Under the pieces are notes generated by a model. The model did no database searches. It was not told where the DNA came from and saw nothing but the letters and a program-made list of their open reading frames with translations. The translations under genes were made by a program, and so were the position numbers. Positions 3 to 7,262 of a stretch of 13,940 nucleotides of DNA are shown here, one piece after another; within the stretch, counting starts at the first letter, position 1, and every line of letters begins with the position of its first letter. The DNA comes from Armatimonadota bacterium (lineage in GTDB: Bacteria > Sysuimicrobiota > Sysuimicrobiia > Sysuimicrobiales > Humicultoraceae): NCBI GenBank assembly GCA_037446215.1, contig JBBIJB010000061.1, forward strand, positions 1 to 13,940, given 5' to 3'.

Positions 3-380
3 AAGATGGAGAAGAAGGCAAGGGCCGGCGCGGAGTTCTTCCAGACGCAGGCGGTGTTTGACCCCGAGCGGTTCGCCGAGTTCGTGAGAGCAACCCGCCA
101 CATCGGCAAGCCTGTTCTCGCCGGCATCATCCTCCTGAAGTCCGCCGGCATGGCGAGGTTCATGAACAGGAACGTGCCCGGGATACTTGTCCCGGACCGC
201 CTGATCCAGATGATGGAAGGCGCCAAGGACAGGCAGGCCGCAAGCGTCGATATCGCCGCCGGGCTGATTCGGGAGCTGCGCCCGCACTGCCAGGGTATCC
301 ACCTCATGGCGATGGGCTGGGAGCATCTCACCTCGCGCGTCCTGGAGGCCAGCGGCTTGAGGGGGCAGGGGGCTGATTAG
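3..380 (+). CDS. metF: Methylenetetrahydrofolate reductase MetF, C-terminal part (gene starts upstream of the window)
   Basis: Frame is open from the window edge (AAG at 3-5, then MEKKARAGAEFFQTQAVFD...PVLAGIILLKS...NVPGILVPD...GIHLMAMGW). The KxxAGAxFxQTQ and GIHLM motifs are typical of the MTHFR barrel C-terminal half. Stop TAG at 378-380. The C1-folate gene context agrees. Confidence 0.9.
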   Translation, partial: KMEKKARAGAEFFQTQAVFDPERFAEFVRATRHIGKPVLAGIILLKSAGMARFMNRNVPGILVPDRLIQMMEGAKDRQAASVDIAAGLIRELRPHCQGIHLMAMGWEHLTSRVLEASGLRGQGAD

Positions 381-381
381 C

Positions 382-1563
382 ATGACACACGAGGAGCTGC
401 TGGAGCAATCCCCGGTCTTCAAGGGGCTGCCCGGCGAGCTGCGAGCCCTCGTAGCGGCCGTGGGGGTGGAACAGCGCTACAGCCCGGGCCAGCGCGTCTT
501 CCAGGAAGGCGACGACTCGACCCACTTCTACGTGATTGAGGAAGGCCGTGTGGCCCTGGAGATGAACGTCCACGTGGGCAGAGCCGAAGGATCCGGACGG
601 CGGGCCTTCGCCGCCGTGATCGGCCCTACGGAGTCCTTCGGCTGGTCGGCCCTGGTGCCCCCACATACGCGGACCATGTCGGCGCTTGCGATCCAGCCGA
701 CATCGGTCCTGGCGATAGACGGGCAGGCCCTGCAGCGCTTGGTCGCGGACGATGCCGCGGCGGGCGCGATAATATTCGGCCAGCTCTCCGAGCTGATCAG
801 CTCCCGCCTGGAAGAGGCGAGGGCCAAGCTCTGCTTCATCATCTCGCTCGTCTCGCACGAACTGAAGGCCCCGCTCGCGGCGGTGGAGAGCTACCTCCAG
901 GTGATGCTCGGCGGCTACGCGGGCGAGATGTCCGAGAAGCAGCGGGCAATGGTCGGGCGTTGCAGCCACCGCGTTCAGGAGCTCATAGAGCTGATAAACA
1001 GCCTGCTGAGGGTATCGAGGATAGAGACCGGCGATCTCTCGCAGGAGATCAAGCCTGCCGCGCTGGCGACGATAGTGGGCGAGGCGATGGAGAACGTGGG
1101 GCCGGCTGCGGCGATCAAGGGGATAGCCCTGCGCGATCGGATTCCGGACGGCCTCCCGCTCCTCCCGCTGGCGCCTCTAAGGATCCAGGAGACGATCACG
1201 AATCTGCTGGACAACGCCGTCAAGTTCACCCCATCGGCGGGCACGGTCGAGATCCTGGCATCCGACCATCCCGACTTCGTCGAGGTCGAGGTGGTTGATA
1301 CGGGAATAGGGATCCCGCTCGAGGAGCAGCCCAGGATCTTCGACGAGTTCTATCGGGGTGAGAAGGCGGACGCCAAGGGACTAGGCCTGGGCCTCGCGCT
1401 CGTTAAGAAGATTGTAGAGGCGCACGGGGGCCGCATCTGGGTCGAGAGCCCTCCCAGCGGAAGGACGGTTGGCACCGCCTTCCACTTCACCCTGTGGAAG
1501 TCCGGCTCCGGAAGGGCTCCCGGCTCGAAGAACTCGAAGCCCGGCAGGGTGGAGGCGGCCTGA
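382..1563 (+). CDS. Soluble sensor histidine kinase: cNMP-binding (Crp-like) domain + HisKA/DHp + HATPase_c, 393 aa
   Basis: cNMP fold (VFQEGDDSTHFYVIEEGRV; ESFGWSAL). H-box SHELKAPL (His codon 856-858), N-box NLLDNAVKFT, G1 DTGIGIP, F-box IFDEF, G2 GLGLGLALVKKIVEAHGG. No obvious transmembrane segment. ATG lies 1 nt after the metF stop, with purine-rich AGGGGG at 367-372. Confidence 0.93.
   Translation: MTHEELLEQSPVFKGLPGELRALVAAVGVEQRYSPGQRVFQEGDDSTHFYVIEEGRVALEMNVHVGRAEGSGRRAFAAVIGPTESFGWSALVPPHTRTMSALAIQPTSVLAIDGQALQRLVADDAAAGAIIFGQLSELISSRLEEARAKLCFIISLVSHELKAPLAAVESYLQVMLGGYAGEMSEKQRAMVGRCSHRVQELIELINSLLRVSRIETGDLSQEIKPAALATIVGEAMENVGPAAAIKGIALRDRIPDGLPLLPLAPLRIQETITNLLDNAVKFTPSAGTVEILASDHPDFVEVEVVDTGIGIPLEEQPRIFDEFYRGEKADAKGLGLGLALVKKIVEAHGGRIWVESPPSGRTVGTAFHFTLWKSGSGRAPGSKNSKPGRVEAA
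636..659 (+). repeat. Copy 1 of a 24-nt near-identical segment (CTTCGGCTGGTCGGCsCTGGTGCC) shared with 1816-1839; trace of cNMP-DHp duplication
   Basis: 23/24 nt identical to 1816-1839 and in the same codon phase; both encode FGWSALVP. Confidence 0.85.
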
Positions 1564-1564
1564 C

Positions 1565-2200
1565 GTGATTGTGCGCGAGGCGCTAGATCGCTGCATCCTG
1601 TTCGGGGGCCTCACCCCATCGGCCCGCGAGCTCGTGGCCTCGCTCGGCTCGGTGGAGTCCTACCAGGCAGGGCAGCGGGTGTTCTCGGAGGGCGACGAGG
1701 CCGCATCGTTCTGCGTGGTTCATTCCGGACGGATTGCCCTCGAGATGGGGGTGACTGCTCCGGAAGAGGATCTGCCGCGTGCGGCAGTCGTCGCGGTGCT
1801 CGGTCCGGGGGAGAGCTTCGGCTGGTCGGCGCTGGTGCCTCCTTTCTTGCTCACGCTCTCCGCCGTTTGCGTCGAGCCCACGACTCTGGTCTCGATCAAC
1901 GGCCCGATGCTGCGGCGACTCATGGCCATCGACTGGGAGATCGGCTATCCGGTCATGTCCGGGCTCGTGGACCTGATCGAGTCGCGGATGTCCCAGATAC
2001 GCGCGCGCCTGGCGCAGATCCACTCCGTGGCCGCGCACGATCTGCGCTCACCCGCGGTGAGGGTGGCCGACTACCTGGAGGCCATGCTCGCGGGGTCTGC
2101 AGGCGATCTCACGGGAGATCAGCGCCACATACTCGAGCGTTGCCGCGAGAGGCTCGCGGATCAGATTGAGAAGCTGAACCGTGTGCTGCATGTGCCGGAG
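1565..2200 (+). other. N-terminal cNMP-binding + HisKA/DHp module without HATPase, paralog of the upstream kinase N-terminal half, in frame with HdrL
   Basis: VFSEGDEAASFCVVHSGRI and ESFGWSALVPP (cNMP fold). AHDLRSP H-box with His at 2036-2038. Colinear with kinase residues about 1-212. No stop codon before the HdrA Rossmann motif. Confidence 0.85.
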
Positions 2201-5200
2201 GACGCGGCAGGCGCGGCCCCGGCGGCGCTGGATCAGCGGCAACTCAGGGAGGGAGGGGGCTCCGAGGTCGGCAGTGGCGACTCGGAGCGCCGGACGATGG
2301 TGACTGTGGAGCACGATGGCGAGCGCCGCGATCAGGCCCGGGCTCCGGTCGGGGCGGCGATGGTCGTGGGCGGCGGCATAGCGGGAATCCAGGCCGCCCT
2401 GGACCTGGCCGACGCGGGAGTGAAGGTCTACATGGTGGAGCGCGGCCCCGCGATCGGCGGTCGCATGGCCACGCTGGACAAGACGTTCCCTACGAACGAC
2501 TGTGCGATGTGCATCCTCTCCCCGAAGCTCTCCAGCGTCGGCAGGCATCCCAATATCGAGATGCTGACGCTTGCCGAGCTCCACAGCCTGGAGGGTTCGG
2601 CGGGTGAGTTCGTTGCAACGGTGAGGAGGCGCCCGCGCTTTGTCGACCCGAGCAGGTGTACCTCCTGCGGCGACTGCGCCGCCGTCTGCCCTGTCCGGGT
2701 GCCGAGCGAGTTCAACGCCGGGCTCGCCGACCGCACCGCCATATTCAAATCCTATGCCCAGGCGGTCCCGGGCGCCTTCTCAATAGACAAGCGCGGGGTT
2801 GCGCCGTGTCGTGACGCCTGTCCGATCCACCAGCGTGCCCAGGGATACGTGGCCCTGGTGGCACAGGGCCGCTTCGAGGAAGCCTTCAGGGTCATCCGGA
2901 GGGAGAATCCGTTCCCGGCAATCTGCGGCCGCGTGTGCAACCACAGGTGTGAGGAGGCATGCTCGAGGGGGCAGCTCGACGGTCCTGTCTCGGTTGCGGC
3001 TCTCAAGCGCTTCGTCGCCGATTGGGCCTACGCCCGTCCGCGCGAACCGCTGCCGCCCGCGGAGGTGACCCATCCGGAGGCGGTGGCCGTAATCGGAGCT
3101 GGACCGGCAGGCCTAACCGCGGCGCGCGAGCTGGCACTGGCGGGCTACCGCACCACGGTATTTGAGGCGCTACCCGTGGCGGGCGGGATGATGCGCGTCG
3201 GCATCCCCGAGCACCGGCTCCCGGCTCCAGTCGTCGAGAGGGAGATCGCGGACATCCTCGATCTCGGGGTGGAGATCAGGTACAACAGCAGGGTCGAGCA
3301 TATCAGAGAGCTCTTCGCGCAGGGCTACAGGGCGGTGTTCCTGGCCACTGGAACCCACAGGGCCCGCAGGCTGCCCATCCCCGGGGCGGACCTTCCCGGC
3401 GTACTGACGAGCACCGATGTCCTGCAGGGCAGCCGGTTGGGTCAGCCTCCGGAACTGGGCAGACGTGTTCTGGTTCTAGGCGGAGGGAACGTGGGGATGG
3501 ACGTTGCGCGGGTGTGCGTGCGGCTCGGTGCCGAGGTGCACCTGGCCTGCCCCGAGTCCCGCGACACGATGCCCGCGCACGATTGGGAGGTCGCCGCTGC
3601 GGAGGAAGAGGGAGTCCACATCCATCCCTCGACCGGCTTCGTGCGGGTGGTGGATAGAGACGGCCGCGCGGCTGGGCTCCTCTGCCAGCGGGTACGATCG
3701 ATGCGCTTCGACGAGGCGCGCCGGCTCCACCTGGATATCGAAGAGGGTAGCGAGCACGTAATCGAGGCGGATGCCGTCGTCTTCGCCATCGGCCTGGCGC
3801 CGGACCTGGGCCCGGTCTCCGACCTCCCGGGCACGACAGCCACGCCGTGGGGATCGCTGGCCGTGGACCCCGAGACCCAGTCCGCGGGCTACCCGGGCCT
3901 GTACGCCGGAGGCGATCTCGCCACCGGCACCGCCTTCCTGGTAGATGCCATCGCCGCCGGCCACCGCGCGGCAAGGGCCATCCACGCCTACCTCAGGGGA
4001 GAGGAACTCGAGCCCGAGGCCTCCGCGGCTGTGAGCAAGCCCACGGTCGCCGAGCTGGAGGCCCGGCTCTCCCGCGGAGAGATCCGCATGCAGCCGCGCG
4101 CCTCGTCCCGGGAGCTGCCCGTGGAGGTGCGCCGCGTCTCCTTCGTCGAGGTGGATGAGAGCCTGACCGAGGAGGAGGCCCGTCTGGAGGCCTCCCGCTG
4201 CCTCGCATGTGGGGTCTGTGCGGAGTGCCTGGAGTGCGTGCTGGCATGCCGCCGGGAGGCGATTGACCACGGCGAGGCGGAGCGAATCGAGAGGTTCGAG
4301 GTGGGCGCCGTCGTGCTAACCCCCGGGGTAGAGCCATTCGACGGGGCCCTCGCCGACGCCTACGGGGTGGGGAGGTTCCCGAACGTCCTGACCGGGCCGC
4401 AGTTCGAGCGGATGCTCTCGGCCTCCGGGCCGACGCAGGGACACGTCAGGCGTCCCTCGGACGGAAGCGAGCCCCACAAGATAGCGTTTCTCCAGTGCAT
4501 CGGGAGCAGGGACCAGACCCACCGTTACTGCTCATCCGTCTGCTGCATGTACGCGACCAAGGAGGCGATCCTGGCCCGCGAGCATGCGCCCGGCTCCGAG
4601 TGCACCGTGTACTACGCGGATCTGCGCGCCTTCGGGAAGGGGTTCGACGCGTACATCGAACGCGCCAAGCGTGCGGGAGTGGGCTACGTGCGCACGCGAG
4701 TGGCGGCGCTCAGGGAGGACCCCGGCACACACGCGCTCGCCTTCAGGGTCGAGGAGAATGGTAGTGTTCGCGAGGAGCAAGCAGACCTCGTAGTGCTCTC
4801 CGTGGGACTAACCCCCCCAATGGGAGCGGTGGAGCTGGCCCAGGCGGCCGGGATAGGGCTCGACGAGTACGGCTTCGCCGCCACCTCGGCGCTTGACCCG
4901 CTCCAGTCGTCCCGCCCCGGGGTGTTCGTGGCAGGGGGGTTCAGAGGCCCGAAGGACATCCCGGACTCGGTGATAGAGGGCAGCGGAGCGGCAGCCGCAG
5001 CCATGGGCATCGTGGGCGTCTCGCGTGGCACCAGGATCGTGCCGAAGGAGTACCCGCCCGAGATCGAGACAGGCCCGGAGCCACGCATAGGGGTCTTCAT
5101 CTGCCACTGCGGCTCGAACATCGCCGGAGTGATCGATGTGGCCGGAGTTGCCGATCACGCGCGCCGGCTGCCCGGTGTGACGCTGGCCGAGACCTCGATG

Positions 5201-6763
5201 TACACGTGCTCTGCCGACACGCTCTCCCGGATCAAGGAGGCGATCGCAGAGGAAGGGCTCAACCGGATCATAGTTGCCAGCTGCACTCCTCGCACGCATG
5301 AGCCGATCTTCAGGGAGGCGCTGCGGGAAGCCGGCCTCAACCCTTACCTCTTCGAGATGGCCAACATTCGCGACCAGTGCAGTTGGGTTCACTCCGCCGA
5401 CCCCCGCGGCGCCACAGAGAAGGCCAGGGCGTTGATAGATGCGGCCGTCGCGAGGGCCGGAAGGCTCGCGCCGCTGCACAAGGTGCCCGTCCCAGTGCGT
5501 CACGAGGCCCTGGTGATCGGCGGCGGGGTGGCGGGTCTGGCGGCTGGCCTGAACCTGGCGGAGCAGGGCTTTCCCGTTGTCCTGGTCGAGAAGGAGGCAC
5601 AGCTCGGCGGCCGCCTGCGCTCGCCGCTGCTCTCCTGGGACGGATCGAAGCCGGCGGCGCTGCTCCAAGACCTGGTTGCGCGCACGACGGCCCACCCGCT
5701 CGTCAGGGTGCTCACCGGAGCCACGGTCGTCGAGTCGCACGGCACGCTGGGCAACGTGGAGACCAGGATAGCGACGCCCGGCGGAGAGGAGGTCGTCCGC
5801 CACGGTGCCACCGTGATCGCGACAGGCCTCCAGGAGTGGCGCCCCACGTCGTACGGGGTGGACGAGGACACCCGGGTGCTCACGCTTGCGGAGTTCGAGC
5901 GCCGGCTGAGCGGCACCGCCTCGCCGGACGGTGCGCGCTCGCTGGTCATGATACTGTGCGCCGGGCCGTGGGACAGGATGCCGTTCTACTGCAGCCGGAC
6001 CTGCTGCGCGCAGTCCATGGCGGCGGCGATCGAGTTCAAGAGGGCCAATCCGGGGTCCTCGGTGGCGGTCCTGGCCCGCGAGATCCGGACGTACGGATTC
6101 GCCGAGGAGTTGTTCACGACGGCGAGGCGCGAGGGCGTCAGGGTCTTCCGCTACTCGCCGGAGCGGGCCCCGCGGGTCGAGCGGACGAGCGAGGCGGTCA
6201 CGGTGACCGTCTTCGATCCAGCGGTGGGCGAGGAGATTTCGCTGGCGGCCGACATGCTCGTAGTCTCTCCGGCGCAGGTTCCCTCGGAGGGGTCGTCCGA
6301 CCTGTGCACGGTGTTCAAGGTTCCCACCACGCTGGAGGGCTTCTTCTTGGAGGCCCACGTCAAGCTCCGGCCCGCGGACTTCGCGAGCGAAGGGCTGTTC
6401 CTGTGCGGCGGCGCCCACTACCCGAAGCCGGTCGACGAGGCGGTGGCGCAGGCGCTTGCAGCAGCGGCCCGCGCCAGCACGCTCCTTTGGCGCGACAGCC
6501 TAGAGGTGGGCGGGGTGGTCACCACGGTGGATCGCGACAGGTGCACGACCTGTCTCACCTGCCTCAGGCTGTGCGCCTACGACGCCATCTCGTTTGACAG
6601 CGAGGGAGTGGCCGTGATAGAGGCCACGCGCTGTCAGGGATGCGGGCTGTGCGTGGCGGCCTGCCCGGGCAGCGCGCTGAGCCTGGGTCACTACCGGCGG
6701 GATCAGATGCTCTCCAAGATCGCCGCGCTGCTGGGGCGGCAGGAGGCGTTCCATGTCTCTTGA
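1565..6763 (+). CDS. hdrA: Large HdrA-like flavoprotein (HdrL type: HdrA module with inserted GltD/NfnB-like FAD/NAD(P)H module, plus second HdrA module with C-terminal 2x[4Fe-4S]), with in-frame N-terminal cNMP-DHp module; 1732 aa from GTG 1565 (1488 aa if started at ATG 2297)
   Basis: GTG 1565 has GGAGG at 1551-1555 and is 1 nt after the kinase stop. HdrA module 1: VVGGGIAGIQAALDLA, GGRMATLDKTFPTNDCAMC, CTSCGDCAAVCP, QCIGSRD..YCSSVCCMYATK, GPKDIP. GltD/NfnB insert: APCRDACP..ENPFPAICGRVCNHRCEEAC, IGAGPAGL, LGGGNVGMD, EASRCLACG. HdrA module 2: RIGVFICHCG, ASCTPRTHE, NIRDQCSWVH, IGGGVAG, FLEAHVKLRP, CTTCLTCLRLC, CQGCGLCVAACP. Confidence 0.9.
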   Translation: MIVREALDRCILFGGLTPSARELVASLGSVESYQAGQRVFSEGDEAASFCVVHSGRIALEMGVTAPEEDLPRAAVVAVLGPGESFGWSALVPPFLLTLSAVCVEPTTLVSINGPMLRRLMAIDWEIGYPVMSGLVDLIESRMSQIRARLAQIHSVAAHDLRSPAVRVADYLEAMLAGSAGDLTGDQRHILERCRERLADQIEKLNRVLHVPEDAAGAAPAALDQRQLREGGGSEVGSGDSERRTMVTVEHDGERRDQARAPVGAAMVVGGGIAGIQAALDLADAGVKVYMVERGPAIGGRMATLDKTFPTNDCAMCILSPKLSSVGRHPNIEMLTLAELHSLEGSAGEFVATVRRRPRFVDPSRCTSCGDCAAVCPVRVPSEFNAGLADRTAIFKSYAQAVPGAFSIDKRGVAPCRDACPIHQRAQGYVALVAQGRFEEAFRVIRRENPFPAICGRVCNHRCEEACSRGQLDGPVSVAALKRFVADWAYARPREPLPPAEVTHPEAVAVIGAGPAGLTAARELALAGYRTTVFEALPVAGGMMRVGIPEHRLPAPVVEREIADILDLGVEIRYNSRVEHIRELFAQGYRAVFLATGTHRARRLPIPGADLPGVLTSTDVLQGSRLGQPPELGRRVLVLGGGNVGMDVARVCVRLGAEVHLACPESRDTMPAHDWEVAAAEEEGVHIHPSTGFVRVVDRDGRAAGLLCQRVRSMRFDEARRLHLDIEEGSEHVIEADAVVFAIGLAPDLGPVSDLPGTTATPWGSLAVDPETQSAGYPGLYAGGDLATGTAFLVDAIAAGHRAARAIHAYLRGEELEPEASAAVSKPTVAELEARLSRGEIRMQPRASSRELPVEVRRVSFVEVDESLTEEEARLEASRCLACGVCAECLECVLACRREAIDHGEAERIERFEVGAVVLTPGVEPFDGALADAYGVGRFPNVLTGPQFERMLSASGPTQGHVRRPSDGSEPHKIAFLQCIGSRDQTHRYCSSVCCMYATKEAILAREHAPGSECTVYYADLRAFGKGFDAYIERAKRAGVGYVRTRVAALREDPGTHALAFRVEENGSVREEQADLVVLSVGLTPPMGAVELAQAAGIGLDEYGFAATSALDPLQSSRPGVFVAGGFRGPKDIPDSVIEGSGAAAAAMGIVGVSRGTRIVPKEYPPEIETGPEPRIGVFICHCGSNIAGVIDVAGVADHARRLPGVTLAETSMYTCSADTLSRIKEAIAEEGLNRIIVASCTPRTHEPIFREALREAGLNPYLFEMANIRDQCSWVHSADPRGATEKARALIDAAVARAGRLAPLHKVPVPVRHEALVIGGGVAGLAAGLNLAEQGFPVVLVEKEAQLGGRLRSPLLSWDGSKPAALLQDLVARTTAHPLVRVLTGATVVESHGTLGNVETRIATPGGEEVVRHGATVIATGLQEWRPTSYGVDEDTRVLTLAEFERRLSGTASPDGARSLVMILCAGPWDRMPFYCSRTCCAQSMAAAIEFKRANPGSSVAVLAREIRTYGFAEELFTTARREGVRVFRYSPERAPRVERTSEAVTVTVFDPAVGEEISLAADMLVVSPAQVPSEGSSDLCTVFKVPTTLEGFFLEAHVKLRPADFASEGLFLCGGAHYPKPVDEAVAQALAAAARASTLLWRDSLEVGGVVTTVDRDRCTTCLTCLRLCAYDAISFDSEGVAVIEATRCQGCGLCVAACPGSALSLGHYRRDQMLSKIAALLGRQEAFHVS
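1816..1839 (+). repeat. Copy 2 of the 24-nt segment shared with 636-659
   Basis: CTTCGGCTGGTCGGCGCTGGTGCC versus CTTCGGCTGGTCGGCCCTGGTGCC; offset 1180 nt. Confidence 0.85.
2284..2299 (+). promoter_or_regulatory. Possible internal ribosome-binding site (GGAG 2284-2287) and in-frame ATG 2297 for a stand-alone HdrL
   Basis: GGAG lies 9 nt before an in-frame ATG that precedes the HdrA FAD-binding strand (PVGAAMVVGGG) by about 16 codons. Confidence 0.45.
6741..6746 (+). promoter_or_regulatory. Shine-Dalgarno for mvhD
   Basis: AGGAGG 6 nt upstream of ATG 6753. Confidence 0.8.
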
Positions 6764-7262
6764 TCTCAAGAACCACGCCGCAGAGGCGGAGCAGTCGGCC
6801 GCTTCGGCCGCGGCCGTCGAGATCGTGGCGTTCTGCTGCTTCTACTGCGCCTACGCAGCCGCAGACCTGGCAGGTGTGATGCGCCTCACCTATCCGCCGA
6901 ACGTCAAGGTGGTGCTGCTGCCCTGCACGGGTGGGGTCGACCCTCTCTACATCCTGAGGGCGTTCGAGGCCGGCGCCGACGGCGTCTTCGTGGCAGGATG
7001 CCTGGAGGGGCAGTGCCACTACCAGGTCGGCAACTACCAGGCGAAGAGCAGGGTGCGCTACCTCAAGAAGCAGCTCGACGAGGCGGGCATAGGGGGCGAG
7101 CGGCTCGAGATGTTCAACCTCTCGTCGGCGCAGGGCCCGAGGTTCGCCGAGGTCGCCCGCGAGATGACAGAGAGGGTGTCGGAGCTCGGCCTCTCTCCGC
7201 TGAGGAAGGCCCGGGCCCGCGGGGCGGCGCCGGCGGCCCCTACGGAGGAGAACAATGGCTGA
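6753..7262 (+). CDS. mvhD: MvhD/FlpD [2Fe-2S] subunit (methyl-viologen-reducing hydrogenase delta family), 169 aa
   Basis: IVAFCCFYCAYAAADLAG, LLPCTGGVDP, AFEAGADGVFVAGCLEGQCHY..GN, ERLEM, LGLSPL. Overlaps the hdrA stop by 11 nt. Confidence 0.95.
   Translation: MSLDLKNHAAEAEQSAASAAAVEIVAFCCFYCAYAAADLAGVMRLTYPPNVKVVLLPCTGGVDPLYILRAFEAGADGVFVAGCLEGQCHYQVGNYQAKSRVRYLKKQLDEAGIGGERLEMFNLSSAQGPRFAEVAREMTERVSELGLSPLRKARARGAAPAAPTEENNG

Follow-up and report, generated by a model that had tools for sequence, protein, structure and literature searches.

A kinase-derived sensor module at the N terminus of an HdrA-type flavoprotein in Sysuimicrobiota

The locus and its fused gene

The stretch of DNA analyzed here (the window) is the entire 13,940-bp contig G000:C61 of a 2.16-Mb metagenome-assembled genome (MAG) with 68% G+C, from the phylum CSP1-3 (Sysuimicrobiota). 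It holds a gene in which a barrel resembling cyclic nucleotide monophosphate (cNMP)-binding domains and a helical hairpin of the dimerization and histidine phosphotransfer (DHp) type, together called the stub below, stand in frame before a large HdrA-type flavoprotein, HdrL. The parts of this gene and its immediate neighbors are as follows.

3..380, forward strand: metF2, 3' part, encoding a methylene-tetrahydrofolate (THF) reductase (Pfam MTHFR, E 2e-18)
382..1563, forward strand: sensor histidine kinase with a cNMP-like domain of the 'GWS' subfamily (see below), HisKA (H-box SHELKAP) and HATPase_c (Pfam, E 2e-16, 2e-9 and 6e-29)
1552-1556 (GGAGG) and 1565-1567 (GTG), forward strand: Shine-Dalgarno sequence and start of the fused gene (sequence; homologous starts in orthologues)
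1565..1930, forward strand: cNMP-like beta-barrel, residues 1-122, 'GWS' subfamily (Pfam; alignment to GlxR/CRP; AlphaFold2 (AF2); Foldseek)
1934..2188, forward strand: C-helix/DHp alpha1 (residues 124-175), loop and DHp alpha2 (184-208) (paralogy to the kinase DHp; model)
2201..2350, forward strand: low-complexity Ala/Gly/Pro/charged linker, residues 213-262 (alignment; substitution rates; sequence)
2351..6763, forward strand: HdrL body, an HdrA-type FAD/Fe-S flavoprotein (Pfam; search of PDB chains; NCBIfam)
6753..7262, forward strand: mvhD (FlpD) (Pfam FlpD, E 6e-48)
7255..8631, forward strand: fused hdrC-hdrB-like gene, Fer4 dicluster and two CCG domains (Pfam CCG, E 5e-24, and Fer4_8; partial NCBIfam HdrB/HdrC matches)

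The frame is free of stops from 1469 to 6763 on the forward strand, and the GTG at 1565 within it gives a product of 1732 residues. This start lies 1 nt past the TGA of the kinase gene (1561-1563) and 8 nt past the GGAGG, and orthologues use the homologous start (ATG or GTG, 'MIxR[DE]AL'). An internal ATG at 2297 (Met245), with GGAG upstream, falls within the linker; it is specific to the window, and we rejected it as the true start because it is not conserved in the linkers of orthologues.

Pfam places cNMP_binding (PF00027) at residues 31-121 (E 1e-12, 48.4 bits vs a cut-off of 27.5). Both the profile score, which is above the gathering threshold, and the beta-barrel fold, for which Foldseek finds CRP, GlxR and PKG domains, put the domain in this family. 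No HisKA match to residues 1-265 is returned by Pfam, even at a maximum E of 10; the DHp hairpin is nevertheless assigned, because the region is 42% identical to its HisKA-positive paralogue, the upstream kinase, and because of the structure model described below. Its H-box histidine, His158, is encoded at 2036-2038. A search of the fused protein with Pfam reveals no HATPase_c, that is, no catalytic and ATP-binding (CA) domain, the hairpin being followed by the linker and then by HdrL. The same search finds no PAS domain, and the full architecture of a DivL-type kinase is not present.

The HdrL body aligns in four stretches with the solved HdrA chains 8rvu_a, 5odc_A and 7bkb_A (E 1e-147 to 9e-178, best for 8rvu_a), starting only at about residue 149 of HdrA, so that it lacks the HdrA N-terminal domain. 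Residues ~409-915 are an inserted NfnB/GltD-like NAD(P)H module (Pfam Fer4_20 and Pyr_redox_2 at 413-799; E 1e-59 to 1e-103 against solved NfnB/GltD chains), a second HdrA-like FAD module begins at residue 1314, and residues 1654-1704 at the C terminus make up a 2x[4Fe-4S] domain. The protein has the HdrA core of a thioredoxin-reductase-like FAD domain and Fe-S domains, together with the two features of the HdrL type, a GltD/NfnB module and an mvhD gene directly 3'. Scores stay below the NCBIfam equivalog cut-offs for archaeal HdrA/HdrA2 (902 vs 1100 bits for NF040770 and 681 vs 1400 for NF041778), and by this measure the HdrL described here is a relative, not an equivalog, of the archaeal CoB-CoM heterodisulfide reductase HdrA.

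A preliminary description of the window had read a single frame from GTG 1565, with a good Shine-Dalgarno sequence, through a cNMP domain, a His-containing DHp and an Ala/Gly/charged linker of about 50 residues into a 'two-module HdrA'. Each of the first four elements stands, the histidine being present in the window copy. The last is roughly right: the HdrA is split by the NfnB/GltD-like insert and is followed by the second HdrA-like FAD module. The automatic JGI name, 'HdrA-like polyferredoxin/CRP-like cAMP-binding protein', indicates that the cNMP part of the fusion was already visible in databases.

Distribution of the fusion

The fused form is found in frame in 14 distinct orthologues of the phylum CSP1-3, from independent assemblies, with linkers that vary in length while the frame is preserved. 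Among 41 related genomes, nine have a fused-type match (E <=1e-84, open frame of at least 1409 aa): the window genome, six of the seven others of its genus g1 (the seventh is 73% complete) and both genomes of genus g5 in the same family. In the other 32, two unpublished genomes (G015 and G024) included, no fused-type match was found. A word-indexed protein search, limited to 952-3031 aa and with 8000 candidates scored, gave nine matches at E <=0.001, namely the window protein and eight clusters of 1356-1738 aa. These clusters derive from NCBI, JGI and ENA assemblies, are 55-68% identical in the N-terminal part, and all carry PF00027 and the HdrA domain set. A pattern scan over one genome per species (185,579 species) found seven fused loci at 56-69% identity, all other matches being at or below 37%. 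When the stub was compared with 1.84 billion representative proteins, 2900 matched at E <=0.001 and none of the best 150 exceeded 840 aa; that no second, independent fusion family appears among these 150 says little, as the representative of the fused family itself is also absent there.

The preliminary description had reckoned with an indel or stop in the linker, and with relatives in which the two parts are separate genes. Logan contigs from four runs of one study (one of them possibly the source) cover positions 1400-2700 and differ from the window by substitutions only, with no indel. Close relatives have the fused gene, and a more distant genome, G029, has a separate kinase and a stub-less HdrL.

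The fused hdrL of genome G001 (= L021) shifts frame after residue 1356, at about 11047, and the protein cluster P0005 ends at the same place. This is either an assembly error or a decaying gene; G001 is also the sole member of genus g1 with Tyr at the acceptor position. Furthermore, L049 (G047:C80:11922-12461) and P0015 (257 aa) combine a cNMP-like domain with most of a DHp and leave no space for a CA domain. They are possibly free-standing 'stubs' in other lineages, or else truncated gene calls.

Origin of the stub and its operon

Residues 1-222 of the fused protein align with the cNMP and HisKA half of the upstream kinase at 42% identity over 228 aa (E 3e-52). The H-boxes are in register (AAHDLRSP in the stub, SHELKAP in the kinase), and the two hairpins have equal length and a common G-x-A-G-[DE] loop. 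In a maximum-likelihood tree of the cNMP and DHp region (32 rows: seven stubs, seven Sysuimicrobiota kinases and 18 foreign kinase-type representatives), the stubs are monophyletic (100/100) and sister (94/93) to the local kinases (100/99), with the 18 foreign kinases outside. The kinase of the genome with an unfused HdrL nests within the local kinase clade. The stub branch is long (0.77); the kinase DHp is near-invariant in seven orthologues. From this topology it follows that the stub arose once, from the lineage's own kinase; its divergence thereafter was quick. Alignment and tree show the N-terminal 212 residues of HdrL to be a duplicate of the sensor and DHp hairpin of the adjacent kinase from which the CA domain has gone. 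A disordered linker, about 25-55 residues long, connects this duplicate to HdrL.

The contig G000:C44 (L097) ends with 19 bases identical to the start of the window, and we therefore join the two contigs. Two single-domain response regulators (142 and ~140 aa; the first, RR-A, at L097:9019-9447) and the 5' part of metF2 lie at the end of C44, so that the full operon reads RR-A, RR-B, metF2, kinase, stub-hdrL, mvhD, hdrCB, fchA, folD, nuoE, nuoF, fdhA. The link to two-component signaling seen in the preliminary description is supported: the stub is a paralogue of the neighboring kinase, and the operon includes, immediately before the start of the window, two single-domain regulators. Seven other genomes have the same order, RR-A, RR-B, metF2 and the kinase standing 5' of the fused gene in eight genomes. 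In two Fervidifonticultor species (L022 and L023=G011), metF2 is followed directly by stub-hdrL. No kinase and no orthologous regulators were found anywhere in G011, which is 96% complete, and L022 is likewise without kinase and regulators. Genome G029, from another family, has RR-A, RR-B, metF2 and the kinase, together with an unfused, stub-less HdrL in which about 35 residues precede the FAD motif. RR-A is 78-97% identical across genera and two families (L015, L017, L018-L021, L024), compared with ~60-65% for the kinase and ~61-70% for the stub, a degree of conservation that suggests a surface constrained by several partners.

Predicted structure and dimer

The AF2 monomer model of the stub, built from 58 sequences, has a predicted local distance difference test score (pLDDT) of 93.7 and comprises a barrel (1-122), a long helix (124-175), a loop and a second helix (184-208). 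The model thus describes a CRP-like barrel whose C-helix continues into the DHp hairpin. Foldseek relates it to GlxR and CRP (E 2e-12 for GlxR) and to the orphan Geobacter structure 3mdp (TMt 0.91, rmsd 1.8 A).

A homodimer through helices 124-207 is predicted with a score of 0.57, against 0.00 for the best control; across three runs the contacts agree to at least 91%, with a partner pLDDT of at least 83. Of solved structures, 20 of 30 homodimers and one of 23 monomers reached the mark used here. The invariant residues V167, Y170, L171, I189, L190, C193 and L197 fall in the predicted interface. Four further invariant residues, R161, R187, H188 and R194, are not among the listed interface residues, and the model suggests that they form an exposed conserved patch. 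R161 occupies the His+3 position.

Selection and the acceptor histidine

Ratios of nonsynonymous to synonymous substitution rates (dN/dS) were computed by the Nei-Gojobori method, with the stub compared in ten pairs. They range from 0.08 to 0.25 for the stub, from 0.12 to 0.16 for the HdrL body and from 0.35 to 1.27 for the linker. A comparison of the two species that have no two-component system yields 0.082 for the stub (212 codons, dS 0.24). The stub is therefore under selection even where the two-component system is missing, and the linker serves as a tether that evolves neutrally. As a conserved mechanism, an obligatory link to the kinase is not supported in view of these two species, which keep the stub at a dN/dS of 0.08 without kinase or regulators.

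The acceptor histidine is retained in six of the 14 orthologues (the window and G002-G006). It is replaced by Tyr in two (G001, P0010), by Phe in three (G020, P0007, P0008) and by Ser in three (G011, L022, P0009). Within genus g1, six of seven orthologues keep it, window included, the exception being G001, whose hdrL is frameshifted. In G001 and G020 the histidine is absent while the kinase and both regulators are present. All 23 kinase-type relatives tallied have it (five of five local and 18 of 18 foreign). The stub family as a whole lacks two defining features of HisKA-type kinases, a conserved acceptor histidine and a CA domain after the DHp. Given this variability, phosphorylation of the acceptor residue cannot be the conserved function, and the control of electron flow by His phosphorylation put forward in the preliminary description is not supported as a conserved mechanism; in the window's genus, His158 may yet be phosphorylated. 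The upkeep of the stub is independent of its acceptor histidine.

In the eight stubs from species that have the two-component system, 108 positions are invariant, and only eight of these differ in both species that lack it. The radical changes are E42A and D159Q/H, D159 being the acidic residue beside the acceptor site. This may be a hint that the H-box region is constrained by signaling partners. Stub and kinase differ at the DHp positions on which regulator specificity usually depends; at His+8, for example, the kinase has Ala and the stub an invariant Arg.

A non-canonical sensor domain and its relatives at other hdr loci

In an alignment to GlxR, the Glu and Arg that contact cAMP correspond to W87 and L96 of the stub, W87 standing at the site of the ribose-binding Glu and L96 at that of the phosphate-binding Arg. 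The Glu and Arg of the phosphate-binding cassette, which secure a bound cyclic nucleotide, are not found in the stub, and canonical cAMP/cGMP sensing was accordingly rejected as the default reading. Trp at the Glu position is found in 54 of 58 sequences: seven of seven stubs, five of five local kinases, 14 of 18 foreign kinases and all 28 free-standing relatives. Arg at the phosphate-binding position occurs in none of the seven stubs (Leu or Phe), in four of the five local kinases, in two of the 18 foreign kinases and in none of the 28 free-standing proteins. We rejected the loss of this Arg as the sign of a 'dead' sensor in the stub, because most of the subfamily is without it. G86-W87-S88 is at least 90% conserved in the 58-sequence alignment, and G86-W87-S88-A89 together with T97, S99 and A100 is invariant in all stubs, as in the kinase sensors and the free-standing proteins. 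On this motif evidence we treat these proteins as a distinct 'GWS' subfamily of cNMP-like domains.

HdrA and MvhD (or a second HdrA) are encoded within 7 kb at eight of the 72 non-fused loci from the pattern scan over one genome per species. One tblastn layout, hdrCB, hdrA and mvhD with the GWS gene about 3 kb downstream, is common to six loci (L052, L071, L057, L064, L074 and L077) from Chloroflexia, Caldilineales, Anaerolineae and one Blastocatellaceae MAG, that is, from Chloroflexota and one Acidobacteriota MAG. The free-standing GWS proteins at these loci have 150-175 aa (L052:7001-7456; L071:6974-7498). According to Pfam, the GWS gene of L052 and L071 is the last gene, after hydrogenase genes and hycI, with a gap of 15-19 bp before it. 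The order in L052 is hdrB/C, hdrA, mvhD, hydrogenase small subunit, NiFe large subunit, hycI and GWS; of these two loci, only L052 has a Pfam-supported large hydrogenase subunit. In two of the six genomes (6.2 and 4.5 Mb), the MvhD of the locus is the only one of the genome. The GWS gene that follows hdrCB-hdrA-mvhD is a recurrent accessory gene, apparently undescribed so far.

In the Dehalococcoidia MAG locus L032 (2400-10233), a free GWS protein is encoded directly upstream of an unfused HdrL of 1518 aa, a second HdrA being present. Opposite this pair lie a GAF-HisKA kinase, with a DHp like that of the window kinase, and two single-domain regulators; L032 thus has the same set of parts as the window, in a 'split' state. 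At further loci in Dehalococcoidia, a GWS protein or GWS kinase occurs together with metF, metV, regulators and a NiFe hydrogenase. The linkage of GWS proteins to Hdr, Mvh and MetF is therefore wider than the fusion. In two Dehalococcoidia genomes (G043 and G044), five of 11 MvhD (FlpD) matches hold one in-frame TGA, which suggests a selenocysteine MvhD.

Comparison with known systems

The closest parallel to the stub may be DivL of Caulobacter crescentus. As set out in PMC4211667, DivL has a histidine kinase DHp without a catalytic role and a Tyr at the acceptor position, where eight of the 14 stubs have Tyr, Phe or Ser (the window stub has His). DivL still dimerizes and is wired to a single-domain regulator, DivK, that docks on its DHp; R553A, at His+3, abolishes binding of DivK~P (PMC4211667). 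Two single-domain regulators are co-encoded with the stub, and the DivK-binding His+3 Arg of DivL is invariant in the stub as R161. Unlike the stub, DivL retains a dead CA domain and PAS sensors and regulates another kinase, CckA (PMC4211667). The stub, in contrast, carries a cNMP-like sensor, is without a CA domain and forms one chain with a metabolic redox enzyme; six orthologues keep the histidine, and the stub outlives the regulators.

For the enzyme body, the nearest description is that of HdrL as a heterodisulfide reductase/glutamate synthase fusion encoded next to mvhD and proposed to take up electrons from NAD(P)H (PMC2702500). The two proteins have in common a large soluble HdrA-type chain with a GltD/NfnB-like NAD(P)H module, followed by mvhD. 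The portion of PMC2702500 available to us mentions no N-terminal sensor or DHp module and names dsr genes as partners, whereas the partners in the window are metF2, hdrCB and C1-pathway genes, and no selenocysteine is seen in the window HdrL. CRP and GlxR domains, and 3mdp (Gmet_1532 of Geobacter metallireducens), resemble the stub in fold and in the C-helix that follows the barrel, but the stub replaces the cAMP contacts (Glu by Trp, Arg by Leu or Phe) and has no DNA-binding domain.

A comparison may also be drawn with the MetFV-HdrABC-MvhD methylene-THF reductase of acetogens (Moorella type), reportedly described by Mock and colleagues in 2014. In both cases MetF is encoded with HdrA-, HdrB/C- and MvhD-type subunits in a Wood-Ljungdahl cluster, as the Moorella cluster is said to be organized. 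The window system differs in having HdrL with its built-in NfnB-like module, a fused HdrCB, no adjacent MetV, a two-component operon and the stub.

The preliminary description knew of no HdrA with a two-component DHp, and our literature searches likewise found no published DHp stub on HdrA, nor its kinase origin, the two-regulator operon or the GWS-Hdr linkage. The main text of the paper on the CSP1-3 phylum (PMC11604079) does not mention hdr, metF or a histidine kinase.

A possible role for the stub

We propose, as roughly an even call, that the stub is a catalytically inert, homodimeric docking and sensing module on an HdrL-MvhD-HdrCB-MetF2 complex, which may work in the manner of DivL where the two-component system exists. 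HdrL-MvhD-HdrCB(-MetF2) is putatively a methylene-THF reductase, linked to NAD(P)H and capable of flavin-based electron bifurcation. Without any catalysis of its own, the stub would form a DHp four-helix-bundle homodimer that positions two cNMP-like barrels at the N termini of HdrL, and the tethered module would modulate the complex non-covalently, by docking and sensing. Where the two-component system is present, a phosphorylated regulator, in the favored DivL-like route, or less likely the kinase itself, may dock on the dead DHp, and the signal would thereby reach the enzyme directly and not via transcription; docking of the regulator would be the most economical path for it. What remains once the two-component system is lost would then be the sensing of a ligand or partner by the GWS barrel, since its pocket and surface are conserved.

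Several observations weigh against this proposal. A pass in the homodimer prediction is to be expected of any DHp-like hairpin, and speaks for likeness to solved kinases, not for binding. R161, R187, H188 and R194 are kept also in the two species without regulators and kinase, so that regulator docking cannot be the whole story of the predicted patch. The loss of D159 in these species represents a single evolutionary event. Given the differences at specificity positions, a docked regulator need not bind as it would on the kinase. The canonical cNMP contacts are missing from the GWS barrel. The ATG at 2297, with its GGAG, could in this organism additionally give rise to a stub-less HdrL. Finally, a neutral linker of 25-55 residues cannot rigidly pass on a conformational change, so that any regulation must act by proximity or docking.

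How do other explanations fare? That the fusion is an artefact of assembly or a frameshift joining two genes, or a decaying relic of kinase duplication, might be suspected because high-GC DNA yields long spurious frames, Pfam HisKA misses the DHp and the linker is neutral. Fourteen in-frame orthologues with varied linker lengths from independent assemblies, and the lack of any indel in contigs of four runs, led us to reject an artefact, and the stub dN/dS, which matches that of the enzyme body, speaks equally against a relic; we consider this explanation practically negligible. It is fairly unlikely that the stub is a purely structural element, an extra dimerization clamp or scaffold for HdrL that carries no signal. 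The predicted homodimer with its invariant core residues, the absence from HdrL of the N-terminal domain of archaeal HdrA, and the retention of the stub without a two-component system would all fit such a clamp; yet a clamp would not need the invariant pocket motif (G86-W87-S88-A89 with T97, S99 and A100), the unfused HdrL of G029 and of Dehalococcoidia manages without one, and a flexible neutral linker makes a poor brace.

Two further schemes, both weaker alternatives to DivL-like docking, give the kinase or His158 a larger part. The stub DHp might form a heterodimer with the kinase DHp and tether the kinase to the Hdr complex, as the preliminary description suggested; the kinase would then either transfer a phosphoryl group to His158 in trans, or be titrated or inhibited by HdrL in the way that RetS blocks GacS. 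The paralogy of stub and kinase, with hairpins of equal length and the same G-x-A-G-[DE] loop, the adjacency of the genes (in the window, 1 nt separates the stop of one from the start of the other), their co-occurrence in eight of ten genomes of known context and the conservation of D159 wherever the kinase is present are consistent with such pairing. We nevertheless find it distinctly unlikely: two species keep the stub under purifying selection in genomes without a kinase, the histidine is absent in eight of 14 orthologues including the kinase-bearing G001 and G020, the long stub branch (0.77) and diverged DHp surface are those expected of insulated paralogues, and the stub is predicted to homodimerize by itself. 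On the model of the Spo0F/Spo0B phosphorelay, in the His-bearing genus of the window, the kinase would phosphorylate RR-A, RR-A would phosphorylate His158 of the CA-less DHp, and His158 would pass the group to RR-B, HdrL thus bearing the histidine phosphotransferase of a four-step relay. The inventory fits such a relay (a kinase, a pair of single-domain receivers, and a CA-less DHp whose H-box has His-Asp), and six of seven g1 orthologues have the histidine, the exception (G001, with Tyr) being the one with a frameshifted hdrL. We rate this scheme no more probable than kinase pairing, as the histidine was lost at least twice (Tyr in G001; Phe or Ser in the g5 clade) and is also missing in four metagenomic clusters, G020 is without it despite an intact kinase and both regulators, regulators and kinase occur stub-free in G029 and in Dehalococcoidia and so need no phosphotransferase, and the stub outlives the loss of its would-be relay partners.

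A docking and sensing stub of the kind proposed above could be one instance of something broader. We may tentatively hypothesize, with more doubt than confidence, an undescribed regulatory layer in which GWS sensors, a kinase and two single-domain regulators dock post-translationally on Hdr/Mvh/MetF complexes in several phyla (Sysuimicrobiota, Dehalococcoidia, other Chloroflexota and some Acidobacteriota). Such a layer could determine which way electrons flow in the methyl branch of the Wood-Ljungdahl pathway, or gate that flow, and the covalent contact seen in Sysuimicrobiota would mark HdrL as its target.

Hdr-type flavin-based electron bifurcation is central to anaerobic energy conservation; to our knowledge, almost nothing has been reported on how these enzymes are regulated after their synthesis. 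Here, a two-component module is physically attached to a putative electron-bifurcating enzyme and kept by selection, and relatives of its sensor recur in hdr-mvh-metF loci of other phyla. The fusion hints at signaling proteins that may act directly on a flavoprotein of the Wood-Ljungdahl pathway. Should the stub dock a phosphorylated regulator or sense a metabolite, signaling proteins would control a core enzyme of carbon fixation and energy metabolism directly and not via transcription, and the system would also give a lead on what a widespread, non-canonical 'cNMP' family binds. Should it be a dimerization clamp only, it would be an evolutionary curiosity that illustrates the recycling of kinase parts. 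A small soluble stub, two small regulators and one kinase offer a tractable entry point.

Other genes of the cluster

Upstream of the two regulators, contig C44 carries metV, fhs, hdrA, hdrA/mvhD, hdrC, hdrB, metV and metF1. This is a complete cluster of the Moorella type, and the organism therefore has two adjacent Hdr-linked methylene-THF reductase systems. Downstream of the hdrC-hdrB-like gene, Pfam identifies the following genes in the window.

8691-9317, forward strand: fchA
~9335 to 10273, forward strand: folD (extent of its domains)
10276-10833, forward strand: nuoE-like
10830-12584, forward strand: nuoF-like
12586 to the window end (13940), forward strand: formate dehydrogenase alpha/NuoG-like (fdhA)

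The last of these has an in-frame TGA at 13768-13770. Read as selenocysteine, it gives CARLUHAPSV and leaves the frame open to the window end, so that the 394-aa open reading frame is probably part of a selenocysteine-containing FdhA cut by the end of the contig. The longest frame for folD, 9062-10273, shares about 250 nt with fchA. Its FolD domains are recognized from residue 92 on, so the true start of folD is probably near 9335.

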